From the UHGV virus genome UHGV-1372088: 64,000 bases of DNA; one strand, written 5' to 3'. How positions within the stretch are numbered: the first letter of the stretch is position 1; the number at the start of each line of letters is the position of its first letter. The notes below the pieces were generated by a model that saw nothing but the letters and a program-made list of their open reading frames with translations, did no database searches and was not told the DNA's origin. Positions 9,516 to 53,763 of this stretch are shown here, in pieces. Both the position numbers and the translations under genes were made by a program. This stretch comes from a virus.

Positions 9516-9674
9516 ATTTTCTTGCATTAGCCATTTTTATGTGATTCCATTACGCCATCGTATGTAAATGAATACATACTCCATCCGGTTCGAGAAACTG
9601 AACCAAGATAGCCTCAAGGATTGAGGGTTTGCCATCCGAGAAACTGGATAGCGGATAATACAAAAGGAATTGTT

Positions 9675-10550
9675 ATGCCTCTGTGGAAAATTCAACAACT
9701 GATGCACGGCTTTACCGGCTATATGGATGTAGCAGGGAAAGAGGAGCTGCCTGGCGGCGCTGGCGCCGATAAAGCGGAAGTTACCCCTGTAGAGCCTGGC
9801 CAGAAGAGCACCGATCATGCCGGTGAATTTGATAGCCTGTCTCAAGAAGAACTCATTGCTCGCCTGAAAGAAGAGCGTAAAAACTCTGCGGATCTGCTGA
9901 AGGAAAGCATGAAGCGCAAAGGTAACGAGCAGACTCTGAAAGAGAAGCTGGCTCAGTTTGGCGATGTCGATCCTGAACGTGTGAAAACGCTACTTCAGGC
10001 GGAAGCAGAGTCTGAAAAACAGCGTAAGGCTTCTGAAGAAGCTGAGCTGTTACGTCGCGGTGAGTTTGACGCGGTCAAAAAGCAAATGGTTGAAGCGCAT
10101 GACGCGGAAGTCGCAGACCTGCGAGCTCAACTCGAACTGGCCCAAAACGAAGCCAATTCACTGAAGCGCGGCCTGATTGAGAAAACCGTCGGCACCTCTT
10201 TCGGTGAATCCAATTTCTTGCGCGAAAAGGTTCTGATGACCCCGGCTAAAGCGCGAGTGATTTACGGTAGCCACTTTGAAGTTAATGAAGACGGTCAGGT
10301 TGTCGGTTATGACAAACCTGCTGGCGCGAAAGACCGCACCATCCTCGTTGACGGAAGCGGCAACCCTCTGAGCTTTGAACTGGCTATCGAGCGCGTATTA
10401 CGTGCAGATCCAGAGGCTGACGCTCTGCTGCGTAGCGAAGCGAAGCCTGGCGTTGGCTCTCAGACCAAAGCCACCACCAAAGTCACAACCGAAGCGCCTA
10501 AATCAGCACTGGATAAGCTGGCAATGGGCTTGGGTAAATTAGGTAAGTAA
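9675..10550 (+). CDS. scaffolding protein (putative)
   Basis: Acidic, predicted coiled-coil protein between portal and capsid. Start at the ATG (9675) preceded by aaggaattgtt. Confidence 0.5.
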   Translation: MPLWKIQQLMHGFTGYMDVAGKEELPGGAGADKAEVTPVEPGQKSTDHAGEFDSLSQEELIARLKEERKNSADLLKESMKRKGNEQTLKEKLAQFGDVDPERVKTLLQAEAESEKQRKASEEAELLRRGEFDAVKKQMVEAHDAEVADLRAQLELAQNEANSLKRGLIEKTVGTSFGESNFLREKVLMTPAKARVIYGSHFEVNEDGQVVGYDKPAGAKDRTILVDGSGNPLSFELAIERVLRADPEADALLRSEAKPGVGSQTKATTKVTTEAPKSALDKLAMGLGKLGK

Positions 10551-10575
10551 TCTCTAAATATAAGGATATATTGAG

Positions 10576-11448
10576 ATGCCATTATTGCGGGAAGAAGCTG
10601 AAAAGCTGAGTAATAACGAACTTGAGCAGGGCGTTATCGAAACCATTATCGATCGCGAAGACCTGTTTGCGGTTCTGCCGTTCTTCAAAGTGAACAGCAA
10701 AGCCTATCTGTACAACCGTGAAGCAACCCTGTCCGAAGCCGGTTTCATCGACGTGAACGATGTGATCGCTGAAGGCGCAGCAACCTTCACCGAGCACACC
10801 GCGAAGCTGCGTATCATGGCTGGCGATGTGGACGTTGATAAGTTCCTGGCCTCCACTATGGCGGACACCAATAGCCAGATGGCTATTCAGATTTCTTCCA
10901 AAGTTAAAGGTCTGGCCCGCGCGTTCCGTCGTAACCTGATTCTGGGTGACGAAACCAAAGATCCGAAATCCTTCAATGGTATCGGCAAGCTGATGGCTGC
11001 TGACCAGGCGATCGCCGCCAATGCGTCCATGACCTTCTCCATGTTCGATGAACTGGTGGATGCGGTTAAAGACCTGGGCGCCGACTGTCTGATGATGCGC
11101 TCCGAGCACCTTCGTGCGTACCGCGCTCTGCTGCGTACCGTGAACGTCGGCCCGTCCGAAATCATGGTGGCCAACTTCGGTCGTCCGATGCTGACCCACA
11201 ACGGCGTTCCGATCATCATCAACGACTTCATCCCGGTTGTCGACGGCGCTGCTTCCATCTACGGTCTGCACATGTCCGAAGAGAACGGCCTGTCCGGTAT
11301 CTACGGCGGTGATAACGCTGGTATCGTTGTTGAGAATATCGGCACCGTTCAGAACAAAGACGCCATCCGTACCCGTGTTAAATGGTACTGCGGTCTGGTG
11401 AACAAGCACGACAAAGCGATCGCGGCGCTGACCGGCGTTAAGATTTAA
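10576..11448 (+). CDS. major capsid protein (putative)
   Basis: 290 aa at the position after scaffold, followed by a strong terminator. Confidence 0.6.
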   Translation: MPLLREEAEKLSNNELEQGVIETIIDREDLFAVLPFFKVNSKAYLYNREATLSEAGFIDVNDVIAEGAATFTEHTAKLRIMAGDVDVDKFLASTMADTNSQMAIQISSKVKGLARAFRRNLILGDETKDPKSFNGIGKLMAADQAIAANASMTFSMFDELVDAVKDLGADCLMMRSEHLRAYRALLRTVNVGPSEIMVANFGRPMLTHNGVPIIINDFIPVVDGAASIYGLHMSEENGLSGIYGGDNAGIVVENIGTVQNKDAIRTRVKWYCGLVNKHDKAIAALTGVKI

Positions 11449-11478
11449 TTGTCTGGTATGTAAATACATACATACCTA

Positions 11479-11513
11479 AAGGGGGTGGGCTTTCGCCCGC
11501 CCTTTTTTTTTTG
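11479..11513 (+). terminator. rho-independent terminator
   Basis: ggtgggc tttc gcccgcc followed by a T10 run. Confidence 0.75.
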
Positions 11514-11532
11514 AAGAAAACGGGAGAATCAA

Positions 11533-11976
11533 GTGCCAGAGCAAAAGATGCAGATCACGTCAGAACCTTTTGACGATTACACCGGGTCGATGTTTCGTAC
11601 ATCGTTCACCAACTCCATCTCAGACAGCCCAATGTCCGAGCGAGCCCAGGGCGCACTGAAGGCTTGTTTCAAGTCTAAGCCATACGTCGATGCAGCCGCT
11701 GTAATTCACGTCCAGAGCGTAACGGTTGCCCCGAAGACGGCGACTGTGGTGGTGGGTGATACGGTTCAGTTGGCAGGCTCTATTAAGCCTGATGACGCCA
11801 CCGACCGCTCTTACCATTGGGTTACTGAAGATTCCGGCATTGCGACCGTCGATGTGTCTGGCCTGGTGACGGGTATCGCTGAAGGCAGTGTGAAGATTCG
11901 TCTGGTAGCCAATGACGGCTCTGTATTCGGCGAAGCGGCTATCACCGTAAACAATCCAGAGACAGTCCAGGTTTAA
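11533..11976 (+). CDS. Ig-like (Big_2) domain protein, probable capsid decoration protein
   Basis: VTVAPKTATVVVGDTVQLAGSIKP...VTGIAEGSVKIRLVANDGS is a typical bacterial Ig-like group 2 domain. Confidence 0.55.
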   Translation: MPEQKMQITSEPFDDYTGSMFRTSFTNSISDSPMSERAQGALKACFKSKPYVDAAAVIHVQSVTVAPKTATVVVGDTVQLAGSIKPDDATDRSYHWVTEDSGIATVDVSGLVTGIAEGSVKIRLVANDGSVFGEAAITVNNPETVQV

Positions 11977-12017
11977 CCAAAAGGGCGTCATATGGCGCCC
12001 ATATTCAGGGATAGAAA

Positions 12018-12449
12018 ATGAAAAGTGCAAAAGTGAAGTTGCTGGAATCGACCTTTAAGGGATACACCGGTCTGCTTTGTGGCGTTCAGTTCGAAGATGG
12101 TGTTTCTGTCGAAGAGCTACCGTTTGTGGATCAGCAGCGTATCTGCGCGTCGATGCGTGCGGAAACCATCGAAGGGCGCAACGTGAGCGCGTCAGGGCAG
12201 TTCTCAGAGCGTCACAACGTCTCGCTTGAAGATGTGCTTGCCAACGAGCCCAAAGCGCCCGACGTCGCTCCTATGCAGCGTGGCGTGGTAGAGCCAGAAG
12301 TACCAAAGTTCACCCGCGAAGAGCTGGAGTCGCTGGCGGACGAGCAGGGGATCTCCGGTCTGCGTGTAGTCGGTAACCGCCTGGGCGTTAAAGCGAAGGG
12401 TATCGTTGAGATGATCGACGGCATCATGAAAGCACAAGGCGGCGTCTGA
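12018..12449 (+). CDS. hypothetical head-associated protein with a C-terminal HeH/Rho-N-like motif
   Basis: EELESLADEQGISGLRVVGNRLGVKAKGIVEMIDGIMKA resembles the HeH/LEM helix-extension-helix fold. Confidence 0.3.
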   Translation: MKSAKVKLLESTFKGYTGLLCGVQFEDGVSVEELPFVDQQRICASMRAETIEGRNVSASGQFSERHNVSLEDVLANEPKAPDVAPMQRGVVEPEVPKFTREELESLADEQGISGLRVVGNRLGVKAKGIVEMIDGIMKAQGGV

Positions 12450-14132: not shown

Positions 14133-14507
14133 GTGATCATAGAACAGTTCGCGACATTGCTGGAAAAGAAGGGTGTTGGCAAGGTGGGAAAGACCATCTT
14201 CGCTAATGCGATGGGGGCGGAGGTAAAGTCTGGCGTCATGGTGGTGACTACAGGCATTGAGATTGATGGGGATCTGCACGACTTCTATCAGGACAATATG
14301 ATTGTGGTAGTCCGGGACGCCAGTATCGGCGCTGCAATGAAGCGAGCTGACCTGATTATGGCCGCTTTGCCGATGTGGGATGAGGAAGAGGCCGGTGTTC
14401 GTTTTCGTTACGTCAGGCCGCTGAATTTGCCGACTTTATTCCCAAGGAACGATGCATCTCTGTTTGAGGTGGGAATTTCCGTTGAGTTTGCCGCCCATTT
14501 GTTGTAA
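14133..14507 (+). CDS. hypothetical tail completion protein
   Basis: 124-aa ORF preceding the major tail protein. Confidence 0.3.
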   Translation: MIIEQFATLLEKKGVGKVGKTIFANAMGAEVKSGVMVVTTGIEIDGDLHDFYQDNMIVVVRDASIGAAMKRADLIMAALPMWDEEEAGVRFRYVRPLNLPTLFPRNDASLFEVGISVEFAAHLL

Positions 14508-14585
14508 TGGTTTTATAAGTATGTGTATACTTACCGTGCTTTAGATTAAGCACCCACAATTAAAGGTAAAAGGAGTTTACCGACA

Positions 14586-20720: not shown

Positions 20721-21056
20721 ATGGCCAGAGAAACATTTGGGTGGAACCCTGATTCGCAATCGAAAAAGACCATAAAGCCGAACGTGACCGTACTGAAGTT
20801 CGGTGACGACTATGAGCAACGCCAGACCATTGGTCTCAACCGCGTGAAGGAAGAGTGGAGCCTGACGTTCCAAAGGCAGCGATCGGAAGTTGAGAAAATG
20901 GACGTTTTCCTGACGAAGAGAGCTGGCGTGGAATCGTTCTACTGGAAGACGCCGCGCAACCAGACAATCATTGTGGTTTGCGACACCCACGATGTTGAGT
21001 ACGACAGAGGGGCGGCGAAGTTGACCTGCACATTCAGACAGGTTTTTGAGTCTTGA
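20721..21056 (+). CDS. M: minor tail protein M (lambda gpM-like)
   Basis: FGDDYEQRQ and SFYWKTP match the lambda M motifs FGDGYSQR and SFLWTPP. ~110 aa. Confidence 0.7.
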   Translation: MARETFGWNPDSQSKKTIKPNVTVLKFGDDYEQRQTIGLNRVKEEWSLTFQRQRSEVEKMDVFLTKRAGVESFYWKTPRNQTIIVVCDTHDVEYDRGAAKLTCTFRQVFES

Positions 21057-21113
21057 TATGTATGTGCTTACATATTAACATGGATCAAATTAAGGCTTAA
21101 CTCACGGAAGATT

Positions 21114-23191: not shown

Positions 23192-26100
23192 ATGGAACAG
23201 TTCAAAAAAAGAAAACTGCCTGAAATTATCGCAGGTGCTGGCGGCAAGAAGTCGTCCGGCTCGTCAAGGACACCGGTAGAGGCGGACGACACCGTTAACT
23301 CGAATGTCAAAGTATCCATTCTGGACTTGCTGGGTGAGGGCGTTATTGGCGGTCTGAAGGACGGCGCGAAGTCGATCTTCCTTAACGACCTGCCATTGCA
23401 GAACTCTGACGACACTTACAACCACTCAGGCGTAACCTGGTGGTTCCGTGATGGCTCTCAGGACCAGAGCATCATCGAAGGCTTCGACTACACCGAAACG
23501 CCTAAAACCATCGGCTTGCAGGTCAAGAAAACGAGCGCCGTTACGATGGCGGTCGACAGTGACAGCGCTGACCGCTTCCGCGTCATTCTGAAATTCCCAT
23601 CGCTGAAATCTGTCGACAAAAAGACGGGTGACACCAGCGGTACTTCTGTCACGTACAAATTCCAGGTGAGCAGTGCCGGCGGCGCATTTGTTGACGTGGC
23701 GCCAGAGGGCGAGTCCTCCGGGACCGTTACGCTGACCGCGAAGAAGGCCGGCGTTTATTATCGAAGCTACATACTCAACCTGCCGAAGCCGGGCTCTAAG
23801 TATCAGGTTCGTGTTGTTCGTGTTACCGACGACAACAAAGACACGACCTACCTTGCCAACGATATCTATGTGGATACCGTCGGGGAGATCATCAACACCA
23901 ACATGAACTACCCGAACTCTGCGCTGGTCGGCCTTCGCGTCAACTCAGAGCAGTTCGGCTCGTCCATGCCGTCTCGTTCGTACCTGATTAGCGGTATGAA
24001 GATCCGCGTCCCGTCAAACTACGATGAAGTCACCAACGAATACCGAGGGACATGGGACGGTTCGTTCAAACTGATGTCGTCCAGTAACCCGGCATGGATT
24101 CTGTATGACCTCGTGACCAATAAGCGCTATGGTCTGGGTGAGTTCGTCAGAGAGTCAATGTTTGACCTTGGCCAGCTTTATCAGATCGGCCGGTACTGCG
24201 ATGCGCTGGTTGACGACGGCTTTGGTGGCAAAGAGAAACGATTCGCCATCAACACGCAGATCACCACGCTTCAGGACGCCTATCGCTGCGTTCAGGATAT
24301 TGCTGGTGCTTTCCGTGGGATGGTTTATTGGGCCGGCGGCATGGTTCATGTGACGCAGGATAGCCCGTCAGACCCGATCGCCATCTACTCAAACTCCAAC
24401 GTAATTGATGGTCGATTCTCCTACAAAGGCTCTGCCCGTAAGGATCGCCCTTCTGTCGCGCTTATCACCTACAACAACAAAGAAGACAATTACAAGCAGA
24501 ATATTGAGTATGTCGAAGACTTAGAAGCCATTGAGCGCTACGGGATACGCAAGACGGAGTCTGTAGCGTTTGGTTGTACTTCTCGTGGCATGGCTCATCG
24601 TGTGGGCTTGTGGACGCTTTATACAGGGCGTATGGAGTCGGACGTTATCACGTTCCAGACAGGGATGGACTCAGCATTCCTCGTTCCGGGCGACGTCATC
24701 CTGATTCACGACAAGTTCCGCGCCGGCCGTCGTAATTCTGGTCGTGTTGTCGCATCCACCGCAAACAGCATTACACTGGACTCTACGGTCGACATGACCA
24801 AGGCTGGCACCATCACCTTCATTAACGCTGAAGGCCGGATGATTAGCCGCGACATCCTTGAATCTGGCGTAGTGAGCAAAGTCACCTTTAAAGATGCAGT
24901 GAACGAGGCCGACCGCCCGGTTGCTGATGGCATCTGGGTGATTTCTCAAAGCGATCTGAAACCGCTTCAGGCTCGCGTAGTTGGTGTTACCCAGGGTGAA
25001 GACGGCGTTGGTAGCACGATCACCTGTATCCAGAATAACCCGTCCAAATATGCTGCCATTGATGACGGCGCCGTGCTCATCCCGCAAAACACGACCGTCC
25101 TTGATCCGACATTCTCGAAACCCGAGAACCTGAAGATCACTGAAGGAACATACCTGTCCTCTCCGGGCAACCTAAACGTATCGCTGACGGCGACATGGGA
25201 AGGTAAATCCGCAGAGTATTGGGTTAGCTGGCGCCGATCCGATGCCGGTAATGTGTCCAACTGGCAGACGGCCAAAGTTAACGAAGAGCAGTTCGAAGTT
25301 AAGCCGGTCGCGGAGAGCGGCAAATACGACTTCCAGGTGTACGGCGTTTCCGTCTCCGGGCGTAAGACCGAAATCCTCAGCACAACGTATCAGGTTCTGG
25401 GAACCATGACGCCTCCGGGCGCTCCATCGTCTCTGACTGCCGTTGGCGACTACCGCCAGATTATCCTTGGCTGGTCTAACCCGTCGTCCGTCGATTTGGA
25501 TCACATCCAGATTTACGCCTCGAAGACCAACGACGTCACCAAGGCGACTCTGCTGGCTAAATCCACGACCACCAACTTCACCCACAGCGGTCTGGAAGAT
25601 TCGGTAACGTGGTACTACTGGATTCGCTCGGCCAACAAACGCGGCATGACCAGTGACTGGAGCTCGAAGCTCGGTACGTCGGCAATGACGCGCGATGTAT
25701 TGTCGTTCCTGCAAAACAAGATCACCGAATCCGAGCTCGCCAAAGACCTTCTGGCTGATATCGACAGCAAGGCGGTTGCTGCTGAGGTTGATGCTTCCAT
25801 TGAAGACGCGAAGTCCGAAGCTACCGCGCAGGTTGAGGCCGCCAAGAAAGAGGCGTCCAGCGCCTTAAGCGCAGCCCAGGTCACGCTGAACAACGCCATC
25901 AATCAGGAAGCGACTGACCGCAATAATGCTGTTGCTGACGAAGCTAAGCAGCGCTCCCAGGCTATTTCGGCAGAAGCTGATGCGCGTACCAAGGCTATCT
26001 CCGATGAGGCTATCGCTCGCGCTGACGCAATTACAAAAGAGTCCGACACTCGCACGAGGGCAATGGCCGACGAAGTCACCGCCCGAAACAAGGCTGTCGC

Positions 26101-35100: not shown

Positions 35101-38100
35101 TGATACGTTGAACAGCACCGTCAAAACGCAAGGTGACACGCTTAGCTCGATCGGAAGTCGTACAACTTCGCTGGAAAATGGGCTGAGTAGCGCTAACAGC
35201 GCTCTCTCACTGAAAGCGGACGCGTCGGCACTGTCATCGCTGACAAATACAGTGACCCAACAAGGCAAGGATCTGGATGCAGCAGAAGCCAATATAACTG
35301 CGGCGAACACCAGCATCACCTCCATGCAGGCGTCTCTGACTCGTCGCACTGTATTTACGGTAACGGCGAAAGGCAACGGTAACAGCGCTAATCACGGTTT
35401 CTTTGATGAGTCAGGTAAAAATCTGTTTACGCCTGGTCGCAGCTATGCGCTGATCACGTTTAAAGCGAATAGCGACGGCTCGACGGTCATTAATACCAGC
35501 AAAACCTATGACGTTTTTGGCTCTGCCAACAACGGGAAGGCGATGTCTGACGATATTGCGGCTCTGGCTAATGGCGTTTACGTTTGCGTGATGACTTATG
35601 ACGAGCCGTCGGGTCAGCGTAACTCGATTGCATCTGCCTTAGAGTTGCTCGGTGGCACAACTGAAGTTATTAACTCTCTGCCATATCGCGGCGCGTACAT
35701 TCTCCTTGGCCGTAAAGGCATGAAGGCCGGCGACGGTCTGGAGTTACGCGCACCTACAGGTGGTGACTCCAGCGCATTTATTTCCACGTCCGTTGAGTTT
35801 GTGAACGGGGTAATGATGGGGTTGGGCGCCGCCGGCGGTGTGATGATGAAGGCGGATGCGAACGCCAGTGCAATCACCACTCTGCAAAACACCGTTAAGC
35901 AGCAGGGCGACACTATCGCTTCGAGCAGTAGTGCCATCACCTCTCTGCAAAACGACATGAGGACGGTTAATGACAATGTCTCTAAAAAGGCAGATGCATC
36001 GGCGCTTCAGACTTTGCAGAACACGGTAACGCAGCAGGGTAAAGATATCTCTACCCAAAGCGCGTCGCTGACGCAGCTCAATAACAGCCTCAGCGCGACG
36101 AATGCCAGCATCGATGCGTCGGGCAAGATCCCTGGGAACCTGATCGTCAACTCGTCATTCGAGCGCGATAAAGATGGCTACACCGGCTGGAGCTCTATCG
36201 CCTCCGTCATCGCAGCGTCGGTGCCACACTCAGGAAGTAAAATCCTCAAGCTGGCTGCCGGCGGATCTGTGTTAGTCGGGCAGGACGTTACCTATCTGAA
36301 GGGTCGCACCTATAAAATCGGCGCATGGGCTAAGCAGGATTCAGGCACCGTTATTCAGGCTGCGGACAACACGAAGTTCCGTATCGCGGATAGCACAGGT
36401 TTGCTGGCTAGTAGTGTTTACGGTCCTTTCACGTCAAACTGGCAGGAGATTAGCTTCACCTGGAGGCCGGGTAAAGATGTGACAGCGGCGACACAGATCA
36501 CCGCCTACCTGTCCGCCGGTGCGATGTATTTCGACGACTTCTACGTTATCGACATCACCGACCGCGTCGATCTGGATGCCACGGTGTCTGCGGTTTCCGG
36601 TCTGACGACGAGAGTGTCCAATGCTGAAGGGAATATTTCTTCCCAATCCGACAGCATCACCACTCTGAACAACGGTCTTAGCACTCTGAACAAGACGGTC
36701 AGCACCAAGGCCGATGCCACGGCGCTGTCTTCACTTCAGAATACCGTGACGCAGCAGGGCAAGGATATTTCGTCGGCGAGCGGAAGCATCACCAGCCTTC
36801 AGAGCAGCCTGAATACGATCAAGGTTCAGAGCAACCCTTGGATTGACGGTACGTTTGAAACCTATGACAACAATCAGCAGCTGGGCGGCAGCACTGCGAT
36901 TGTAACGACGGACTTCAAGAACAGCGGCAACAAATGTCTGAAGGTTACTCGCCCAGCCAATACCAGCGGGAATTCCGACAAGACGATCGGCTCCTATTCT
37001 GCGGTGCGCCAGAGCGCGAAATATCGCGTTGAGTTTTGGGCTATGATGCCGGCAAGTGAAGCCCCGCCGTCTGGCTGGACTGTGGTCGTTGGTCTGCACT
37101 CCATCAACAAAGATGGTGGGAATGACTGGCAGGGCATTGCGTTCGACGAGGCTGGTCTTGGCGGTCGCGACCAGTGGGTTAAGTTTACTGGTGTAGTGAA
37201 AGTGAGTCCGAGCGTTACCCGTAGCCATGTATGGATTTCTACTCGTGGTCAGAGTGGCTCCAACACACCTGGATACGCGGTGTACATTGATGATTTCGTC
37301 ATTACCGATATCACTGATGCTGCGGATGCACAGGCTACGGCGGATGCGAACGCAACAGCAATCTCATCGTTGCAGACGAAGGTCAGCGATATCGATGGGA
37401 AAGTGACTGCCCAAACGTCGCAACTGTCTTCCATGCAGTCGAAGGTAGATGCGTCTTCTTCGAAAGTGGATCAGCTGTCTAAGACCATTTCGGACAGTCA
37501 GAGCACTCAGGCATCGTTGAACACCAGTCTTCAGTCTCAGATTGATGCCCAGGCTTCGGCCAACATCAAAAACCAGGCTGATCTGAACTCGGCGGCCACG
37601 AGCATTGCGACCATTAAGTCTACGCAGTCCACACAGGCTACGCAGCTTAGCGCAATTGCCAAGCAGCAAACCGATATGACGGCATCGCTGGACAATCAGT
37701 CGGCATCTATTCAGACGCTTCAGGAGTCTGTCGCGAACAACGATTCTCTGAAGAGCACCTGGATGGTGAAGATGGAGACGAACAGCGCCGGCCAGAAATA
37801 TGCAGCGGGTATCGCGCTGGGTGTGGATGGGAAGAGCCAGCAAAGCCAGTTCTTGGTTCAGGCAGATCGCTTCGCGCTGATTAATACCAGCAACGGCAAT
37901 ACGACGACACCGTTTGTGATCGATAACGGTGTGACGTACATGAATGCCGCTTACATCAAAGATGGGGCGATCACGAACGCGAAAATTGGTGGTGAGATTA
38001 GGTCTGACAACTTCGTAGACGGATCTCAGGGCTGGCGTGTCGGAAAGGATGGTTCTTCTCAGTTCCACAACGTCGTTGTCCGAGGACATGTTGAGGCCAA

Positions 38101-38757: not shown

Positions 38758-40263
38758 ATGAGTATGTACGAAGTTGGCACCGTAGCGGGTGCCGCAAATC
38801 AGGCGAAAGTGACTGGTACGACGACGAAATGGTCCAATGCCGCGCTGGGTGTCCAGCAAGGTTCTATTCTGGTTGTTTACAGGAGCGGCAATGCAGATCT
38901 GTATGCGATCAAGTCTGTCGATAGCGACACACAGTTAACGCTGTCCAGAAATATCACTGTCGCTTTCTCTGGCGCGTCGTATGGCATTATTACGTCAGAG
39001 ACAGCCAGCACGTCAGCTTTTGCCAATCAGCTCGCCAGCGCGTTCTCCCTTTGGCGTAGCGTCGTCGAAGGATGGTCTGCTGCGCTGACGTCGACGGGCA
39101 ACATTACGATGACAGATCCCATCACAGGAGTGTCAGTTACGGTCCCTGCCATTAATGGCATGGCCAGGATTGCCGGCGGCAACAACTTAACCGGAACGCA
39201 GAGCCTCGACAGCGACGACTCCGGTTTTATCCTCGGAAAAAATGGCGACATAGGTCTTATCAAGAAAAGCGGAACCTATGGGAAGGTTATGGTGGGAAAA
39301 TCGTCTCGATTCTCAGTCGTTCGAAGCGACAAAGACCGGATATCGGCAACTGACGAACAGACTGAAATTTTTGGCGTTGAAGCTAACGGTGACGTCAAAG
39401 TCGCGAACTCACTTTATGCTAAAGGTGTTCTACAAAGTGATTATCAGGTTAAAGCGCAAAGTATCGAGCTTTCCTATACAACACCGTATATCGACTTCCA
39501 TTATGGGAATAGCACGGCAGACTATACTCACCGAATTATTGCGGATGACCCGGTCGCATTAGGGTTCGAGTGCAGTCTTCGAGTTGCCAAAAATATTCGC
39601 GCGCAGGAGGGTATCAAAGCCGATTTATATGTGCGTGCCGCCAGTCGTGCCGGCATCATAGCGCAATATGACAGTGACCCCGGCGGAAATATCGGTGATC
39701 TTCGAGTTGCCCCAATCGTATGCAGTCAATTCGCAACTGTAGGCGCTGATGGAAACGGGAACGCTGGCGCGAATTTTTGGTTTGAGGAACACATAGGTTA
39801 CAACCACCGTCTGGTAACTCAGGTCAAGGGATATGGTGCGGCGGTTCAGTATTGGCATCATCGCAGCGATGGGATGATTTGGAATAGTCAACGTGGGGAT
39901 GTGGCATGGGCTGCAACCTCTGATAAAAATCTCAAGCATGATATTAAGCCCACAGACGGTCGACAGTCTCTGGATAACATCAACGCTATGGACCTCGTTA
40001 CGTTTGTTTATAACGATGACGAAAAAGGCAGAACGAGACGTGGCGTGATAGCGCAGCAACTTCAGGAGATTGACCCATGCTATGTGAAGGTTAGTCGTGG
40101 CGAAATACTCAAAGATGAAACTGAAGACGGCACGGGGACTCCGGTTGTTGTTGAGAAGCTCGTTCTGGACACCAACCCTCTCTTGATGGATGCACTGAGT
40201 GCCATTCAGGTTTTGTCGAGAGAGATTGAATCCCTAAAAGCTGAGTTAGCCTTGCGCTCTTAG
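38758..40263 (+). CDS. tail fibre / tailspike with a C-terminal intramolecular-chaperone (peptidase S74-like) domain
   Basis: C-terminus DKNLKHDI...GVIAQQLQEIDPCYV...LLMDALSAIQVLSREIESLKAEL resembles the autoproteolytic chaperone domain of endosialidase-type fibres. Confidence 0.6.
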   Translation: MSMYEVGTVAGAANQAKVTGTTTKWSNAALGVQQGSILVVYRSGNADLYAIKSVDSDTQLTLSRNITVAFSGASYGIITSETASTSAFANQLASAFSLWRSVVEGWSAALTSTGNITMTDPITGVSVTVPAINGMARIAGGNNLTGTQSLDSDDSGFILGKNGDIGLIKKSGTYGKVMVGKSSRFSVVRSDKDRISATDEQTEIFGVEANGDVKVANSLYAKGVLQSDYQVKAQSIELSYTTPYIDFHYGNSTADYTHRIIADDPVALGFECSLRVAKNIRAQEGIKADLYVRAASRAGIIAQYDSDPGGNIGDLRVAPIVCSQFATVGADGNGNAGANFWFEEHIGYNHRLVTQVKGYGAAVQYWHHRSDGMIWNSQRGDVAWAATSDKNLKHDIKPTDGRQSLDNINAMDLVTFVYNDDEKGRTRRGVIAQQLQEIDPCYVKVSRGEILKDETEDGTGTPVVVEKLVLDTNPLLMDALSAIQVLSREIESLKAELALRS

Positions 40264-40350
40264 GTTGCGATGATATGTAAGTGTATACATACTAGCCTAG
40301 TGCGGCTATCATACAGGCTGGAATCGGTTTGACAGACATGGAGGACGAAA

Positions 40351-41815: not shown

Positions 41816-42045
41816 TTAGTTGCAGCCTGATTAATGTCTGCACATCGTCGCAACGTAACGCATTTTGAGACGTTCTAATCGTTACTGGTACGTTTGCTTA
41901 TCGACCCTCTCTCCATGCCACCAGCACCCCAATCCCTTCGTTTAAAACGACACCCAAGCCAAGCTATTGCATTTTACAGCGAATCGAAAAGCGGCTAGTA
42001 TTCCCTAAACAAGAAAACAACATGTTTACTAACGAGGCAGTGTAT

Positions 42046-42711
42046 ATGCAAACTACCGTTATAGTTGTTGGTGGAACAAAAGGCGGACCGGGCAAATCAA
42101 CAATCGCCCAGCAAATAGCCGCCTATCTCATCCTGAAAAAGAAAAAAACCGTGTTCATTCTCGACATCGACCCCCAGATGACGACCGCTCGCTGGTGCGA
42201 AGACCGCTCTGAGAATGAAGATTTGACCATCATCCCATTCGCCGCCAAACAGCACGATATCGATCAGACTATCGCCAGCTTGCGAGGAAGATATGACTTT
42301 GTGGTTATCGATGCAGGGGGCTTTGACTCCGACATTCAGCGACATGCTCTGAGACACTCTGACGTCGTTCTTCTGCCGCTAAGACCGAAACGTCGCGATC
42401 TGCGTTCACTTGGCGATGTGGATACCGTTGTCGCGGCAGCCAGAGCGTCTAATCCAGATCTGAAAGCCTACGTCGTCATGAATCAGTGTCCGTCATTGCC
42501 GTCTCAGGCGAAGCGCATTCTGGTGGCGAAGGATGTATGTGAGACGTTTGGTCTGGAAACCACACCGGTCAATCTTTACAACCGCAACGTGTACGACGAT
42601 GCAGAGTGGGCGGGGCGTTCCATCTTTGAAGTGACTGGCTCTGAACGTGATCCGAAAGCGGAAGCGGAAATTCAAGAAGTCACCAATTTTATTCTTTCTG
42701 GAGGTAATTAA
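42046..42711 (+). CDS. parA: ParA/MinD-family partition ATPase (small type Ib-like)
   Basis: Deviant Walker A GGTKGGPGKST, A-prime box LDIDPQ, Walker B VVIDAGG. Confidence 0.75.
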   Translation: MQTTVIVVGGTKGGPGKSTIAQQIAAYLILKKKKTVFILDIDPQMTTARWCEDRSENEDLTIIPFAAKQHDIDQTIASLRGRYDFVVIDAGGFDSDIQRHALRHSDVVLLPLRPKRRDLRSLGDVDTVVAAARASNPDLKAYVVMNQCPSLPSQAKRILVAKDVCETFGLETTPVNLYNRNVYDDAEWAGRSIFEVTGSERDPKAEAEIQEVTNFILSGGN

Positions 42712-42713
42712 GC

Positions 42714-43154
42714 ATGGCGGACGATTTGAAGAAGGCTGGTGGGTTTGGTGACTTGACAAGCGGTGCTCGTCAATCGAAGCGCATCGAAGAAGCCGACAAA
42801 CCGGCTCGCGTATCAAACAAGACCCAAGGCGCTCCACTGAAAGGTAAGACGGCAATCAGAAGTCGCACCATCAGCCTGGAAGAAGAGTACGTTGAGTTCA
42901 TGGAAATTCTGGTTAAGCGCCTTCCTGACCTAAGTCTGTCACGATCAGATATCGTCCGTGTTGCACTGGTCGCTCTCAGCAAGATGAAAGCCGAGAAGCT
43001 GAAGTCTGTCATCGAACAGAACCGTTTGACCACCAGCAATGAAGTCGGTCTTCGCATTACCGAACTGGAACGAGAGTTCGACAAAGCCGAACGAGAAGAG
43101 CTGTTGAAGACTATCACGCCGGAAGAGTTGGAAAGGCTAATTGACCGCAGCTGA
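42714..43154 (+). CDS. small partition partner protein (ParG/ParB-like, putative centromere-binding)
   Basis: 146 aa immediately downstream of parA. Basic N-terminus and coiled C-terminus. Confidence 0.45.
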   Translation: MADDLKKAGGFGDLTSGARQSKRIEEADKPARVSNKTQGAPLKGKTAIRSRTISLEEEYVEFMEILVKRLPDLSLSRSDIVRVALVALSKMKAEKLKSVIEQNRLTTSNEVGLRITELEREFDKAEREELLKTITPEELERLIDRS

Positions 43155-43477: not shown

Positions 43478-43609
43478 TATTCGACGTTCACCCCAGACCT
43501 CAAAAAGAAGCCGCCAAAGAACCTACATTTCCCACTTTTAAAAATCACGCAGCCACATTACACTTGGCACAATTGTAAGTATGTAAGTGTATACATAGGC
43601 ATCATAAAA

Positions 43610-44332
43610 ATGATAAAGCTGCACATGGCGCTGGATTTCGAAAAGTACGACATTCTGGAGACGATGGATACCGCGACAATGGACTTGTGGGTATCCCAGC
43701 ACGTCGGTCTTTCCCGATGCAAGGCTGAATCGTCGCTGTACACCAGTAAGTGGTTCGACTACCGCACCATGCACCCTCTTGTGGCCACCTGTCTTTTTAC
43801 CGAAGTGTATAAGCTCAAACACTCCCAGATTACCCGTACCCACGGAAGAGAGGATCTGGTGAAAGCCTACTTTACCACAGGTTTGAAGAGAGTTTCATAC
43901 CTTGACATGTCGAAGGCGAACATCACGTCTCTTTGGAAAGCGAGACAGGTGGCGGACAGGTACTGCGTCCCATACGACTACTTTGTCGAGACCATCCTCA
44001 GCATCGCAGCATCGAGACTATGGGATAAGCTGCCGCGACCGCAGCATATGTGGCAGGAAGATCTCATTGAGATTTTTGAAGAGAAGATGAAGACGCGCAT
44101 GAAGACCACCTTCGACGATTCCGATTTCAGCTTCCAGAACGCATCCCAGATTGTCAACCGTGAAATTCAGATGGCTTATTGCCAGTGGATCATCAACCGC
44201 GTGAAGGATATGCCGTCCAGCAAGCGTGTTTACGCTATCGCTAATGTCGCCGTCCTGAATCGCCTCGTGCCGATGTCCGTCATGCAGAAGTGCTTTCCGG
44301 CCGAGTCGGAGAGAGCTCAGGTCTTCTGTTGA
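43610..44332 (+). CDS. hypothetical protein, first gene of the replication module
   Basis: 240-aa ORF. No recognised motifs. Confidence 0.35.
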   Translation: MIKLHMALDFEKYDILETMDTATMDLWVSQHVGLSRCKAESSLYTSKWFDYRTMHPLVATCLFTEVYKLKHSQITRTHGREDLVKAYFTTGLKRVSYLDMSKANITSLWKARQVADRYCVPYDYFVETILSIAASRLWDKLPRPQHMWQEDLIEIFEEKMKTRMKTTFDDSDFSFQNASQIVNREIQMAYCQWIINRVKDMPSSKRVYAIANVAVLNRLVPMSVMQKCFPAESERAQVFC

Positions 44333-44397
44333 TGCCCTTGTGTAGTTTGAAATAATTAACCCATGAAACAAGTTGTTTAGGAAATAAGAGAAAGGAC

Positions 44398-47809: not shown

Positions 47810-47888
47810 CCTCAACAATTCACTGCCATGCCGTTGCACTTCGTTTATGATATATGTATAAGTAAGTGCATACATAGGTGCAACGAGC

Positions 47889-48332
47889 ATGAGCAAGATA
47901 AATATCAGCAAACTTCCTTCAATTTCCAACAACAGCTATTACCTGAAGTGCTCTGCGCCGTCTGCGAACGGCAAAGATATGGGGTGTAGCTACACGGTAT
48001 GTCAACACACTGTCATTACGTTTCAGGCCGGAAAACTTAAGGGATTTGATGGTTGTCGCAAGGCGATCGCTGAGCGCAAATGCAAAGCCGTTGGAATGAT
48101 GGTCGAGGAAATTAAGTCGGGGGTTCCGATTTACTTCGTCGATAGCGCTGAAGAAATCCGTCTCGTTGAAGAGGAACGAGCCAGGTCAAGCATCTTCGCC
48201 GCGCGGAAAAAATCGTCTCCGACGTTCGCATCTCGTATCGCCAAAACCGAATCAGTGCCGGCCGCTAAGCCAGCGGCTCCAATCGTAGATATTTACGCGG
48301 AGCTCGTCGCGGCCGAATTGTCCAGTAAATAA
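47889..48332 (+). CDS. hypothetical Cys-rich protein
   Basis: 147 aa with N-terminal C...C...C..C spacing. Confidence 0.3.
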   Translation: MSKINISKLPSISNNSYYLKCSAPSANGKDMGCSYTVCQHTVITFQAGKLKGFDGCRKAIAERKCKAVGMMVEEIKSGVPIYFVDSAEEIRLVEEERARSSIFAARKKSSPTFASRIAKTESVPAAKPAAPIVDIYAELVAAELSSK

Positions 48333-50355: not shown

Positions 50356-50568
50356 GTGATTCAGCTAACGAAGCGGGAGCTGGCCACACTGTTCGAAATT
50401 GATAAGTGTGGTTACTTCCTGGAAAACTGGCGACCAAAGACAAGGGCGCGTTTAGAGCGCGTCCGTTTGGTTGATATGAAGGAGTCGAACGGAGAGATAC
50501 GCTACAAGCTGTCCGACGTCGGCAGAGAACTGATTTTGGCTTTAATGGAATCAAAAGGGAGTGTTTGA
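50356..50568 (+). CDS. small hypothetical protein
   Basis: 70-aa ORF. Confidence 0.25.
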   Translation: MIQLTKRELATLFEIDKCGYFLENWRPKTRARLERVRLVDMKESNGEIRYKLSDVGRELILALMESKGSV

Positions 50569-50806: not shown

Positions 50807-51238
50807 CGGTTTAGATATATAAGTGTTTACATACATGCTCGTAATGTATAAGATTGTTTTGTTTTCGGAGTGATGCGATTTTTGCGGAGTTTTAGAAACT
50901 GACCACAAAGATAAATGCAAACGATGATGTAGTTCTGATGGCGGCTTAATAGCCTATAAGTCAGTGAGGTCTTCCGATTCCTCATTAACAAATTCGGCGC
51001 ACTGATCCGGTGTGATTAATAATGGATAGCGGAGACTTGCTGGTGAATAGGCGATACTGACCCACGTACCCTTAACCACGCGATAGAGTCAGACGGCGAG
51101 TCTCTGCGAACATGGGTGATGGCCTTTTAGTTTGTCGATTAGCTGTGCATAGCGTCGGCGAGCGAAGTCTGGTGACTTAAAGGTTTATTCCGATGCCTGA
51201 TGTGTGAAATGCAAATAGCATATTTGAGGCTGAGGATT

Positions 51239-51267
51239 GCGGGTTCGATTCCCGCGTCACTCTCCCA
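51239..51267 (+). other. tRNA-like T-arm plus acceptor 3-prime fragment (gcgggttcgattcccgc gtcactc t ccca)
   Basis: Canonical T-stem/loop (GTTCGATTC). No convincing full cloverleaf upstream. Confidence 0.4.
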
Positions 51268-51797
51268 CGTTTCAGCTGTTTGGGTGGTTAGGAGCATTTC
51301 CAATAACCATATCCCGGTTTCAGCCCGCAACTGACCGCCCAAACAGCTGCGTCGTGTGTGATTACTTAATGTCTCATTTCATCTTGGGTTAATTTGAAAT
51401 TGCGACGTAGCGCCTTTCTCAAAACATGAAGAGGGTTTTGAGAAAGTGCGTGCTTACGATCGGGCTTTCTTTTGCCATTGACAGTCTTCTTCAACGACTT
51501 GATATGTTGATCATAAGCCCAGCCGGGGGTGGCGTGATAACACCGGCTGATTGAGATGTTTGTCTAAGGAAGGAGACTTTGGTATTGGTCTCCGATCTCA
51601 CCTCCAGGCCATCGAATATGCCTCCGCTGTTTGGTGACAGGCTCAGTCCGTTCCCTCTTAACGATAAAAGAGGTGCAAGCAAACAAAGCAGTCTGGTTGA
51701 CTGCGGCCGAGGAAGACGTCTTATCCGGCAGAGAGTGGTTAGATTCCGCTTGTTTGCGCCAACCTAAAGGGCTTTTTCGAGAGTCCTTCAGATTGGA

Positions 51798-51871
51798 TAC
51801 CCAATGCGACAAAACGGTAAGTCGAGAGGATGCTGAGTCCGATGATGCAGGTTCGAGTCCTGCTTGGGTGA
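51798..51871 (+). tRNA. tRNA-like gene, possibly degenerate (weak anticodon stem)
   Basis: Acceptor tacccaa/ttgggtg, D-stem cgac/gtcg, T-arm gcagg ttcgagt cctgc. The anticodon stem forms only 3 bp (loop tgctgag). Confidence 0.3.
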
Positions 51872-52079
51872 CTTATCTAAGATGATGTGATTCCATACAT
51901 CACTTAGTGTCGAGGTCTAAATGGTGCGGCCATCAACCGCGTAAACAGCCATTAGATCCGAGCCACAAGCCTCGTCTGGCACTAACGTAAAGTGCAAGTG
52001 ACGTGAAATTCAGGCTGTACGGCCAGAAGAGTAGCGTCGCGAACCATAGATCAACTTCATAATTTAAAAGAGAATACAC

Positions 52080-52691
52080 ATGTCTGAAGTCAAGAAGGTC
52101 ATTACCGTAGCTGAACGCTCCACCAAAACTCTGGTTAAAATCGTTGCTGATGGCCAGAAGGTGCTTGCTGAACTGGCCTCTATGGCTGATTCAAACGTTA
52201 TTCTGGCCGAAGAGATTGAGTTTAAACAAGGTCAGCTGGCTGATATCGAAAACCAGATCGCCTCTACCGAGCGTGAAGCTAAAGCCCAGCTGCGTCTGCG
52301 TGTAATCGAAAACGAAGACAAAGTTCTGGCCGATCTGATGAAAGCGCGTGGCTATGCCGTCATCACCTTCTCTGATCTGGATTCTCTGAACTCTGAACTG
52401 GTCGCGGCCAAAACCGATAACGAGTACGCAGTATCCGAAGCGCGTGAAGCTGGTTATCAGGCAGCAGCTGCTAAATTTGGCGCAGAGAACCGTGAACTGG
52501 CATCCCAGCACAAAGTTGAACTGGCAGAGTTTAAGGCTCAGGCGGTTGCTAAAAACCAACGCATCTCTGACCTGGAAGCGCAGGTTTCCGAACTGCGTGG
52601 TCAGATCACCGCAGAGCGTGAAACTCGTCTGGAGATCGCTAAAGCTGATGCTGGTCGTGCAGGTGTGGTTGTGAACGCCGGCAAGAACTAA
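52080..52691 (+). CDS. hypothetical coiled-coil protein
   Basis: 203 aa followed by three consecutive hairpins (52700-52716, 52723-52752, 52826-52848). Confidence 0.4.
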   Translation: MSEVKKVITVAERSTKTLVKIVADGQKVLAELASMADSNVILAEEIEFKQGQLADIENQIASTEREAKAQLRLRVIENEDKVLADLMKARGYAVITFSDLDSLNSELVAAKTDNEYAVSEAREAGYQAAAAKFGAENRELASQHKVELAEFKAQAVAKNQRISDLEAQVSELRGQITAERETRLEIAKADAGRAGVVVNAGKN

Positions 52692-52825
52692 TGTCGACTT
52701 GGCCTCTTCGGAGGCCATAGCCGAAAGACTGATTGCGATTGTTCTTTCGGCTGTGACTCGACCCATAGCAACTCCATTGTATCGAGATAGACACGATAGA
52801 AACTTTTGTTCGCGCAAAAACCAAA

Positions 52826-52848
52826 GGAGCCGAAAGGCTCCTTTTTTG
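52826..52848 (+). terminator. rho-independent terminator
   Basis: ggagcc gaaa ggctcc followed by T6. Confidence 0.7.
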
Positions 52849-52862
52849 TATCAGGAGAAAGG

Positions 52863-53684
52863 ATGACCAGCAAAACTATCAACCCACCGCTGAAGTGGCC
52901 AGGCGGGAAGCGAACCGTGATGGGGTTCATCAACCAACACTTCCCAGAGGGCCGGCGACTCATCGAGCCATTCGTCGGTGGCGGTTCCGTTTTCCTGAAT
53001 GCCGGGTTTGACCGCAATCTACTGAATGACGTCAACCCGGATCTGATTAACTTTTACCGCCAGCTGGTGGCCGGTGGCGCCGGTTTCGTTGAAATGGCGA
53101 GAGAGCTGTTTTCCAAAAACAGTGAAGGCGAGTATTACGACATCCGTGAGAAATTTAGAGCGCGAGATTCTGCGCCGGATATTCAAGCAGCCTACTTCCT
53201 GTATCTCAACCGGCACTGTTTCAACGGGCTGGTCCGCTACAACCAGGCTGGTGCGTTTAATGTCGGGTATGGGAAATACAAAGCGCCCCATTTCCCAGAG
53301 GCAGAGATGCTTGCGTTGATCCAGATGGCTGGCTTGCGAGAACTGGCGTTTGTTTGTGGCGACTTCGACAGTGTCATAGAGGAAGCGGGGGATGGTGACG
53401 TTGTATTCTGCGATCCGCCATACGAACCCATGCCAGATAAAAATGGCTTCACAGCGTACTCAGGGGCGACCTTCAGCTTCGCGGACCAAGAGCGTCTGAC
53501 TCGTCTGCTGATCGCGGCCACGGAGCGTGGGGCGCGTGTGATGATAACCAATAGCGGAGCGCCAAAGATTCTGGAGCTGTACCACAACAACGGATTCACG
53601 CAGCGCCGGTTATCCGCTCGTCGCTCCATCTCATGCTCAGATTCCGGGCGTGAGACGGTAAGTGACGTGTTGGCCATTATTTGA
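52863..53684 (+). CDS. DNA adenine methyltransferase (Dam-like)
   Basis: NPPLKWPGGKR N-terminus and DPPY motif (CDPPYEP). Confidence 0.75.
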   Translation: MTSKTINPPLKWPGGKRTVMGFINQHFPEGRRLIEPFVGGGSVFLNAGFDRNLLNDVNPDLINFYRQLVAGGAGFVEMARELFSKNSEGEYYDIREKFRARDSAPDIQAAYFLYLNRHCFNGLVRYNQAGAFNVGYGKYKAPHFPEAEMLALIQMAGLRELAFVCGDFDSVIEEAGDGDVVFCDPPYEPMPDKNGFTAYSGATFSFADQERLTRLLIAATERGARVMITNSGAPKILELYHNNGFTQRRLSARRSISCSDSGRETVSDVLAII

Positions 53685-53763
53685 AACACGAATATATGTA
53701 ATGACATACATATGTGATAGCGGTATATTCCAGATGTCACTCATCAATTAAAGGGATTTTAAA

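Follow-up and report, generated by a model that had tools for sequence, protein, structure and literature searches.

The 64,000-nucleotide virus genome stretch UHGV-1372088, referred to here as the window, is by megablast part of an SSU5-like phage-plasmid of Klebsiella. Its intergenic gaps carry a dispersed palindrome, TAnGTA-N6-TACnTA, that is, judged from the comparison of related genomes, real, functional, and family-wide. The copies are probably operators, each bound by a dimer of the element's own XRE-type protein encoded at 57981-58361, which would serve as a lysogeny repressor with dispersed sites; the probability of this reading is put at roughly 0.6. We infer both that the XRE protein is the binder and that binding amounts to repression. 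The original prediction had proposed the scattered operators of a master repressor, with this XRE protein as the candidate, and the comparative evidence described below lends support to both parts. The closest record is pINF102.5 of Klebsiella pneumoniae (CP110757.1; 103,831 bp, circular), which is 99.1% identical to the window over 22 kb.

A Palindrome Confined to Intergenic Gaps in This Genome

Exact copies of TATGTA-N6-TACATA, the form in which the palindrome had been reported, occur six times in the window, at 9561, 11457, 21057, 40274, 43580, and 53695, and not once in 100 dinucleotide-preserving shuffles. When up to two mismatches are allowed, 16 matches are found against 0.7 expected. 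A symmetrized weight matrix made from the element's own sites, applied with a cutoff of 17.6 bits and a count of nonredundant sites, returned 14 sites at or above the cutoff, starting at 2153, 7895, 9561, 11457, 14516, 21057, 40274, 43580, 47859, 50816, 53695, 58429, 58978, and 61096. All 14 are intergenic, and every degenerate or half site named in the original prediction was recovered among them. One copy had been read as having a 12-nucleotide spacer, at 47854-47877; a site exists there, but it is really an N6 palindrome (TAAGTAAGTGCATACATA, 47859-47876) that follows a stray TATGTA.

In the complete, 99%-identical 104-kb genome CP110757.1, the matrix finds 24 dispersed sites. The consensus TAnGTA-N6-TACnTA is present there in 19 copies within 19.3 kb of unannotated DNA, compared to 0.024 expected from shuffling the same regions, and it does not occur within the 84.6 kb of annotated coding sequence. 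Because shuffling those very gaps yields only 0.024 copies, their AT-richness cannot account for the pattern. Neither shuffled sequence of the same composition nor coding DNA thus carries the motif at a comparable density, and the location outside coding sequence that had been claimed from the window holds for the complete genome as well.

Retention at the Same Junctions across Relatives

The palindrome recurs throughout the relatives of the window. SSU5 has 24 sites of the form TA(A/G)GTA-N6-TAC(T/C)TA, a second Klebsiella lineage (NZ_AP024176, hereafter kp2) has 27 of the form TAAGTAA-N4-TTACTTA, and Cyrano, from E. coli LF82, has 24. The motif is also found in pHCM2, in Citrobacter, Cronobacter, Enterobacter, and K. 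michiganensis, and in further E. coli and Klebsiella plasmids. An Acinetobacter baumannii relative with about 67% identity in the portal gene has 29 copies of ATTATTAGTAAGCGCTTACTAATAAT; many of the Acinetobacter copies end in a perfect TATAAT without a -35 element. Among the morphogenesis genes, the shared junctions are the terminase stop codon before the portal gene, the region upstream of the scaffold gene, and the gap between the capsid stop codon and its terminator; among the tail genes, one precedes the major tail gene, another separates two minor tail genes, and a third follows the tail fiber genes. The others lie before the first gene past the partition operon, before nrdA and thyA, and where the helicase and ParB-like genes diverge. 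Since the motif is retained at the same junctions across lineages, it is judged functional. Literature searches found no published description of the motif, of operators, or of a regulon in SSU5-like elements.

Several of these junctions constrain the site closely. The leftmost copy in the window (2153-2170, TATGTAAATGGATACTTA, 22.4 bits) sits in a 74-bp divergent gap that has a minus-strand DEAD-box helicase gene on one side and, on the other, the plus-strand gene at 2188, the first of the ParB-N-domain genes; promoter-like hexamers are present on either strand. At this junction the site is kept in kp2 (1880), Cyrano (105108), and Acinetobacter (110407), and weakly in SSU5 (99799). At 7895-7912 (TAAGTAAACACATACATA, 25.6 bits), the first three bases form the stop codon of the large terminase gene, which is why position 3 is A here and not T, and the portal start lies 17 nucleotides further on. 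Orthologues of this junction with a site are found in SSU5 (2032), E. coli, Enterobacter, kp2, Cyrano, and Acinetobacter. The next copy (9561-9578, TATGTAAATGAATACATA, 25.8 bits) follows the portal stop codon and a terminator-like hairpin (9488-9507) and precedes a scaffold-like gene. Its equivalents in SSU5, kp2, and Cyrano fall within the 3' end of the portal gene, and the position is therefore retained even within coding sequence.

The copy at 11457-11474 (TATGTAAATACATACATA, 28.4 bits) begins 8 nucleotides past the major capsid stop codon and ends 3 nucleotides ahead of a strong intrinsic terminator (11478-11507, 13 pairs). This order of stop codon, motif, and terminator, which had been noticed in the window, was confirmed and is found also in E. 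coli (locus L008, 24669), SSU5 (5472), kp2 (11041), Cyrano (5444), and Acinetobacter (7429). At 43580-43597 (TATGTAAGTGTATACATA, 27.3 bits), the palindrome precedes the start codon at 43610 by 12 nucleotides; 12-15 nucleotides had been proposed for this gene and for the gene at 47889, and 12 is correct for both. The gene at 43610 is the first past the ParA-like partition operon and lies upstream of a DnaB-like helicase gene; the junction is orthologous in SSU5 (33601), kp2 (40064), and Cyrano (31297).

The Symmetry Points to a DNA Site Rather Than an RNA Hairpin

In the palindrome, T1, A2, G4, T5, and A6 hardly vary, and neither do their mirror partners. Position 3, taken together with position 16 across the arms of this genome, is T in 33 cases, A in 13, G in 3, and C in 1. 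The center favors a pyrimidine–purine step, and the flanks widen the dyad to about 20 bp (A-TAnGTA...TACnTA-T); in three lineages, the compositions of the left arm and the complemented right arm agree out to the flanking A/T. The centers of the invariant triplets GTA (positions 4-6) and TAC (positions 13-15) are 9 bp apart, which places the half-sites on one face of the helix. A periodicity of 4 nucleotides, (TAAG)n or (TATG)n, is also present, so that registers displaced by 4 nucleotides score as well.

As an alternative to operators, the original prediction had offered RNA hairpins acting in processing or translational control, and a role in transcript stability belongs to the same proposal. 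Such hairpins would account for the fact that every site lies on the transcribed strand of co-directional genes, that several precede start codons by 2-17 nucleotides or stand just ahead of a terminator, and that four copies in the window fold at -6.5 to -9.6 kcal/mol with z below -3. Those four are the only ones of the 14 window copies that beat shuffled sequence; the other ten, with z above -1.5, are no more stable than their shuffled versions. Of 24 sites, 12 can pair position 3 with position 16, where independence of the two positions predicts 12.9; SSU5 has 15 such sites with 10.6 predicted, and the second Klebsiella lineage has 21 with 21.6 predicted. The pair is thus open in half of the sites with no compensatory trend, and it is the sequence of the stem that is conserved, not its pairing. 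The distance to the start codon varies from 2 to more than 100 nucleotides, and no Rfam family matches the motif. The central step and the dyad-symmetric flanks are, in contrast, as expected for a protein dimer on DNA. Since variation in one arm is independent of that in the other and most copies form no RNA fold, the conservation of sequence without structure bears the signature of a dimeric DNA-binding protein, and a function in RNA is regarded as very improbable.

Most Copies Overlap Promoter-like Sequences

The relation of the palindrome to promoters was assessed by scoring full -35/-10 sigma-70 elements that overlap it, with each palindrome's own mirror strand serving as control, for 75 sites from three lineages. 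The best score averaged 8.3 bits on the gene strand compared to 6.6 bits on the mirror strand (Wilcoxon p = 5e-5, n = 75), and scores of at least 8 bits were reached by 45 sites on the gene strand and 14 on the mirror strand. These figures suggest that most copies overlap sigma-70-like promoters on the gene strand, an assignment that is statistical and not proven for each site. No promoter-like element was detected by overlap scoring at 7895, 9561, 11457, or 43580 or at their orthologues. The position of the palindrome relative to the predicted -10 element ranges from -4 to +38. A sigma-70 -10 element at a fixed distance was considered and rejected, as the hexamer profile reflected mainly the palindrome's own symmetric flanks (TGA-TA...TA-TCA) and had no single register.

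Three promoter architectures recur, and they are retained across lineages though position 3 of the palindrome changes. In one, TTGATA-17-TA(A/T)(C/T)AT, the palindrome is the spacer; it recurs across lineages at the tail M/L genes and at nrdA. The window copy between two minor tail genes (21057-21074, plus strand, TATGTATGTGCTTACATA, 28.4 bits) is of this kind, with TTGATA at 21053-21058, a spacer of 17 nucleotides, TAACAT at 21076-21081, and a promoter score of 10.7 bits, and the arrangement is shared with kp2 (TTGATA-17-TAATAT), SSU5, and Cyrano. In another, TTGTAA-18-TATACT runs through the right arm at the major tail gene. The window site (14516-14533, plus strand, TAAGTATGTGTATACTTA, 25.0 bits), upstream of that gene, is overlapped by TTGTAA (14502-14507) and, after 18 nucleotides, TATACT (14526-14531); across five lineages, the -35 element, the palindrome, and the -10 element are nearly invariant. 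In the third, the right arm itself, TTTAC(A/T), serves as the -35 element 17 nucleotides ahead of TAAGAT. At 50816-50833 (plus strand, TATATAAGTGTTTACATA, 23.3 bits), this reads TTTACA-17-TAAGAT (50826-50854), and orthologues with the identical -10 element are present in SSU5 (41774), kp2 (47589), and Cyrano (38253).

A GC-rich hairpin directly follows the operator and predicted -10 element at the major tail gene (14534-14585). Its sequence is lineage specific, for example GTGCTT...AAGCAC, GCACC...GGTGC, or CGTC...GACG, and orthologous hairpins are located at 9086-9136 in locus L004, 14095-14137 in L007, 9037-9087 in L012, and 27784-27834 in L008; an invariant ribosome-binding site, AAAAGGAG, comes after it. 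The element looks like a stem-loop of the 5' untranslated region that is preserved in structure and not in sequence.

An independent promoter scan agrees with the overlap scores. In the 40-60 kb region, 5 of 13 plus-strand matches lie on, or within 7 nucleotides of, a palindrome, namely those at 40274, 47859, 50816, 53695, and 58978. The copy past the tail fiber gene and upstream of the lysis cassette (40274-40291, plus strand, again TATGTAAGTGTATACATA, 27.3 bits) is matched by TATACA-17-TATCAT at 40284-40312. The plus-strand copy at 47859 (26.4 bits), 12 nucleotides before the start codon at 47889, begins 7 nucleotides past the -10 element of CTGCCA-17-TATGAT (47823-47851). Between the Dam methylase and PhoH genes, the site at 53695-53712 (plus strand, TATGTAATGACATACATA, 23.1 bits) is overlapped by ATGACA-17-TATATT (53701-53729), the top match of the region with 10 of 12 positions. 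The site at 58978-58995 (plus strand, TAAGTAAACACTTACAGA, 17.6 bits), 10 nucleotides before the VWA (CobT-like) gene, starts 7 nucleotides past the -10 element of TTGAGT-16-TATACT (58943-58970). Upstream of the MoxR-like AAA ATPase gene (61183), the site at 61096-61113 (plus strand, TATGTATGTACTTACTTG, 23.0 bits) has overlapping registers shifted by 4 nucleotides, with TTGCTT-16-TACAAT just downstream (8.1 bits) and orthologues in SSU5 (45125) and kp2 (63878).

The 1-20 kb region gave only 4 promoter matches on both strands compared to 11.9 ± 3.3 expected, one of the four being the TTGTAA-18-TATACT element through 14516. This depletion in the morphogenesis region suggests selection against spurious promoters in a late operon.

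The Candidate Binder Is an XRE-Type Helix-Turn-Helix Protein

The candidate gene (57981-58361, minus strand) encodes a 126-residue protein of the XRE/Cro-C1 helix-turn-helix (HTH) type and overlaps the end of the integrase gene (56969-57991). The AlphaFold2 model, made from a 28-sequence alignment, has a predicted local distance difference test score (pLDDT) of 91, with helices at residues 8-19, 23-30, 37-42, 50-60, and 64-75 and a long C-terminal helix at 77-125. Foldseek returned as its best matches the controller proteins C.BclI and C.Esp1396I, the 434 repressor, P22 c2, SinR, and Stl, all XRE-type HTH proteins, with target template-modeling scores of 0.7-0.8 but weak E-values (about 1e-2). 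The protein matches PHROG 8, "transcriptional regulator" (E = 1.5e-7). Its Acinetobacter homologue reaches 37 bits against Pfam HTH_3, where the cutoff is 23, and the family profile E = 5e-18. The domain scans matched no peptidase family, and in place of a RecA-cleavable S24 peptidase domain of the lambda CI/LexA type the C terminus has the single long helix.

By tblastn, XRE homologues are present in 833 plasmids, with a genus profile like that of the terminase/portal search apart from Acinetobacter; in an Acinetobacter plasmid, a homologue occupies the equivalent position. The order of integrase gene, XRE gene on the opposite strand, small divergent open reading frame, and VWA gene is fixed in all lineages compared. 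In E. coli LF82, the orthologue CYRAN_45, a "putative repressor," is transcribed in the lysogen at 10-fold above the prophage background, and Cyrano is inducible by ciprofloxacin (PMC9928086).

SSU5, which was isolated as a lytic phage, has no homologues of integrase, XRE, and PhoH, and it retains the VWA gene and all of the sites. The PhoH, integrase, and XRE genes (compare 53764-58361 in the window) are carried by essentially every plasmid-form relative and are missing in SSU5, which looks like a deletion derivative no longer able to lysogenize. Since SSU5 grows without the XRE gene and still has the sites, the XRE protein, if it is the binder, is dispensable for lytic expression, and repression is favored over activation. 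Among the proteins scanned, a minority of the proteome, no other conserved HTH candidate was found. The SSU5 regulators gp054, gp116, and gp121 were considered and set aside; only gp121 is common to the lineages, weakly so, and no site is linked to it.

Association of the XRE Gene with the Sites

In all of the enterobacterial lineages examined, the XRE gene is preceded by a palindrome with the core of the motif. In the window, this is the weaker site at 58429-58446 (minus strand, TAAGTAAGTACATACAAT, 18.0 bits), 67 nucleotides upstream of the XRE start codon and within the 338-bp gap common to the XRE gene and the divergent small open reading frame at 58700-58921. The promoter-like score at this site is 8.4 on the minus strand compared to 5.7 on the plus strand, and TTGTAT-18-TATTCT can be read around it on the minus strand. 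It is likely the autoregulatory operator of the XRE gene. In eight lineages, the upstream site is GGTAAGYRCTTACC or a near variant, 31-44 nucleotides from the start codon where measured. Cyrano, pHCM2, and Citrobacter have ctgGTAAGTGCTTACcga; two Klebsiella lineages have GTAAGTACTTAC together with a second site, GTAAAGTCTTAC; kp2 has two tandem sites of the TAAGTAAG type, which is also that of Kp_103584. In Acinetobacter, the region contains only half-sites.

The predicted recognition helix appears to vary together with position 3 of the motif. Eight enterobacterial lineages and Photorhabdus, with N-(A/S/P)-N-N in the helix, have A or G at position 3; the window, with N-V-N-T, has T; E. coli lineage L024, with Y-Q-N-Q, has TATGTA left arms; and two Klebsiella lineages with N-P-N-I have a mix of A, G, and T. 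From the alignment, the variable residues would fall at the beginning of helix 3, the part with which repressors of the 434 type read bases. The covariation is suggestive, as it comprises few independent changes and the T of L024 is found mainly in one arm. Two further contexts were set aside, P0073 because it is not a phage-plasmid and P0002 because its contig is too short to inform.

The published lysogen expression data of Cyrano can also be compared with the sites. Upstream of the 13 further genes that the lysogen expresses, no site is present, and the Cyrano sites at 31180 and 31297 lie exactly between expressed partition-operon genes (CYRAN_29, CYRAN_30) and a silent helicase operon, a border whose window orthologue is the site at 43580. 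This pattern is consistent with repression through the sites and is not significant alone (estimate roughly 7-8%).

A Model for Dispersed Repression and Its Alternatives

Based on these data, a simple model would have the repressor sit, in the plasmid state, on about 24 sites across the replication, nucleotide-metabolism, lysis, and morphogenesis genes. Where the palindrome lies within or against a sigma-70-type promoter, as spacer, -35 element, -10 element, or start site, a bound dimer would exclude RNA polymerase. At the promoter-less sites, between the terminase and portal genes, between the capsid stop codon and its terminator, and at the first gene past the partition operon, it might act as a roadblock to read-through or occupy auxiliary sites for cooperative binding, which is the most speculative step. 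The weaker site upstream of the repressor gene would provide negative autoregulation, and loss or inactivation of the repressor would free all promoters at once. A more elaborate and less likely version would assign the sites a dual role, as operators at promoters and as roadblocks or modulators of termination at the promoter-less positions, where they would insulate the plasmid genes expressed in the lysogen from the lytic genes. They would then be a palindromic, XRE-based counterpart of stoperators, and residues 35 and 37 of the helix would set immunity specificity among co-circulating Klebsiella lineages.

A number of observations weigh against repression by the XRE protein. Several conserved sites are promoter-less, one of them right before a terminator, and simple promoter occlusion does not explain them; some predicted -10 elements (TATCAT) contain the downstream start codon and so are not real promoters for that gene. 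The window XRE protein taken alone scores below the Pfam HTH thresholds. The link between protein and sites is correlative, and details of it fit poorly: L024 has T mostly in the left arm and A in the right arm, an arrangement that would be unusual for a homodimer; the copies closest to the XRE gene match the motif less well than many distal ones; and two lineages with T-type sites genome-wide have a non-T-type site next to the XRE gene. A conserved site also precedes the ParB-N-domain operon, so that the argument from a protein's own promoter is not unique to XRE.

There is, in addition, a second palindrome, AAACAA-N-TTGTTT, with 9 copies in this genome, 11 in SSU5, and 13 in kp2, which dominates the accessory/early region where TAnGTA is rare. 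Upstream of the helicase gene, the window copy (44366-44378) follows a promoter-like site with a TG extension (44329-44356) at a distance of 9 nucleotides. Copies in the reverse complement of CP110757.1 are at 55484, 71728, 76370, 77005, 79918, 80352, 83565, and 85212, and those in SSU5 (loci L004-L005, record coordinates) at 81, 30449, 42729, and 80773-94525. Other copies are followed by a GATAAT-like -10 element or stand 12-19 nucleotides before start codons. This second palindrome probably serves another regulator as its operator; it is likewise located at promoters, and the regulator in question could be the true master repressor.

The binder could be another factor of the element, such as a Cro-like lytic regulator or a middle/late activator, with the XRE gene as one member of its regulon. 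The sites precede replication, nucleotide-metabolism, and morphogenesis genes and are nearly absent from the accessory/early region, which resembles a temporal class; SSU5 keeps its full set of sites without an XRE gene; the Acinetobacter copies that end in TATAAT suggest factor-dependent promoters; and the relative weakness of the XRE-proximal sites points the same way. In contrast, the spread from -4 to +38 relative to the -10 element is usual for repressors and unusual for activators, the palindrome fills the core promoter spacer at many sites, no rival conserved HTH protein came up among the proteins scanned, and it is with the XRE recognition helix that the sites covary. On balance, this alternative is doubtful. 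The two ParB-N-domain proteins are improbable binders. The element is a plasmid, ParB-family global regulators have known precedents, and the sites might be centromere-like or silencing sites comparable to those of KorB on RK2 or SopB of N15; moreover, the operon is present in all lineages, including Acinetobacter, always with a good site 17-20 nucleotides upstream of its first gene. Both proteins, however, match only the N-terminal ParB/sulfiredoxin-like domain, below the NCBIfam cutoffs, and domain scans found neither an HTH nor a C-terminal dimerization region in either of them. A separate ParA-like partition operon is present at 42022-43154, and about 25 promoter-overlapping sites are unlike a centromere pattern.

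Binding by a host protein, be it LexA or some other enterobacterial regulator, is scarcely credible. The geometry TGTA-N6-TACA is that of the LexA box CTGT-N8-ACAG save for the outer C/G, and a relative, Cyrano, responds to ciprofloxacin. The invariant C of the SOS box is A in the motif, however, and the window contains no CTGT-N8-ACAG, so that a LexA box was rejected. Lineages within K. pneumoniae differ at position 3 (T, A, or mixed A/G/T), and because lineages in the same host use different bases there, the binder is more readily sought in the element than in the host; the motif is, moreover, kept in Acinetobacter, which belongs to a different order. Repression by the XRE protein therefore remains the preferred reading, at the probability given at the outset.

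Genome Context of the Sites

Records as close to the window as CP110757.1 number only four, and in the rest of the family the terminase and portal genes show 60-80% identity. The SSU5-like family takes in the S. Typhi plasmid pHCM2 and, in Klebsiella, E. coli, and Enterobacter, hundreds of further plasmids, with a related group in Acinetobacter; both the portal/terminase and the XRE searches also match Y. pestis plasmids, among them the 96-kb CO92 plasmid NC_003134.1.

Nearly all genes of the window are on the plus strand. They run from the ParB-N-domain genes through terminase, portal, capsid, tail genes (including an open reading frame of 5170 amino acids), and lysis genes to the ParA-like operon, and continue with helicase, primase, ligase, Dam, PhoH, a toxin-antitoxin pair, integrase, the XRE gene (minus strand), and the VWA and MoxR-like genes. 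The ParB-N-domain proteins (2188-2880 and 2870-3541) belong to an operon at 2188-5878 that is conserved from Acinetobacter to Klebsiella and also encodes an ABC-type ATPase and three proteins without assigned function; it lies directly upstream of the small terminase gene and is divergent from the DEAD-box helicase gene. The 5170-residue frame (23192-38704), annotated as a phage tail protein in CP110757.1, far exceeds the J-like tail proteins of SSU5 and Cyrano (roughly 1400-1600 residues). A tRNA-Gln gene (anticodon CTG, 51798-51872) is located inside the 1.2-kb gap after the site at 50816; in the equivalent place, SSU5 and Cyrano have tRNA-Asn, and Cyrano has Thr and Ser tRNAs as well.

In the Acinetobacter relative, a gene with a sigma-70-family annotation follows just past the VWA and MoxR-like pair (28641-29306 in locus L018; NZ_CP121372.1, 53646-54311). 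Its product matches Pfam Sigma70_r2 with E = 0.0026, below the cutoff. A phage-encoded sigma factor was rejected as an explanation, the weak Pfam match being confined to Acinetobacter and tblastn finding no enterobacterial homologue. A contig of a Serratia relative (L030, reverse-complement coordinate 8855) contains a perfect LexA box, ACTGTATATAAATACAGT, and CYRAN_98 of Cyrano (record 89311-89700; 39311-39700 in locus L027) is a stand-alone "LexA-like peptidase S24" protein. Both are possible links of the SOS response to induction.

Relation to Known Systems and Significance

The original prediction had called the arrangement P1-type. The analogy holds for the layout: P1 C1/ImmC, like the system proposed here, belongs to plasmid prophages of about 100 kb, in which one repressor maintains lysogeny through operators scattered at separate promoters. 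It does not extend to the parts. P1 operators are asymmetric 17-mers (ATTGCTCTAATAAATTT type) that are read by a monomer of a C1-family protein, whereas the site here is a palindrome of 18-20 bp and the candidate binder has an XRE HTH of the Cro/C1 type with a coiled-coil-like tail, and not the C1-family fold; no search for a C1 homologue was made in the rest of the element. The resemblance is one of logic only, without membership in the P1 family.

The closest formal match to palindromic, dispersed, intergenic sites is found in the Streptomyces phage phiC31, where a 17-bp palindrome (the conserved inverted repeats, or CIRs) in many intergenic regions is bound by the phage repressor. Phage, host, and repressor are unrelated to those considered here, phiC31 integrates, and no sequence relation is expected. 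The stoperators of mycobacteriophage L5, bound by gp71, are similar in another respect. They are twenty to thirty repressor sites in short gaps of long co-directional operons, some promoter-less, with a proposed block to elongation that would fit the promoter-less copies at 7895, 11457, and 43580. The window has sites in such a setting too, as those at 7895, 9561, 11457, and 43580 occupy short gaps between co-directional genes and have no promoter-like element. Stoperators are, however, asymmetric 13-mers in strict orientation to transcription, unlike the dyad-symmetric sites described here, most of which overlap promoters.

In its DNA-binding fold, the candidate resembles the HTH_3 repressors of lambdoid phages (CI/Cro, 434, and P22 c2), which likewise use dyad operators with invariant triplets about 9-10 bp apart and whose repressor gene is divergent from lytic genes with an operator between. 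It differs in the lack of an S24 domain, in a C terminus that is one long helix, in about 24 dispersed operators instead of left and right operators (OL/OR), and in belonging to a plasmid prophage. KorB with its OB sites on IncP RK2 and the SopB sites of N15 also combine a short palindrome scattered over a plasmid with global repression; there the binder is a ParB-family protein with an HTH, in contrast to the ParB-like proteins of the window, which show only the N-terminal domain.

The dispersed-operator layout known from P1 has apparently not yet been described for the widespread SSU5-like family. These elements are among the commonest phage-plasmids of clinical Enterobacteriaceae, and their silencing and lytic switch are essentially unstudied. 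A motif, a named candidate repressor, and about 24 mapped sites per genome make the question of silencing experimentally tractable, and they offer annotators a means of marking transcription units across the family. Finally, the base at position 3, which differs among lineages, could explain which of the plasmids can coexist in one cell.

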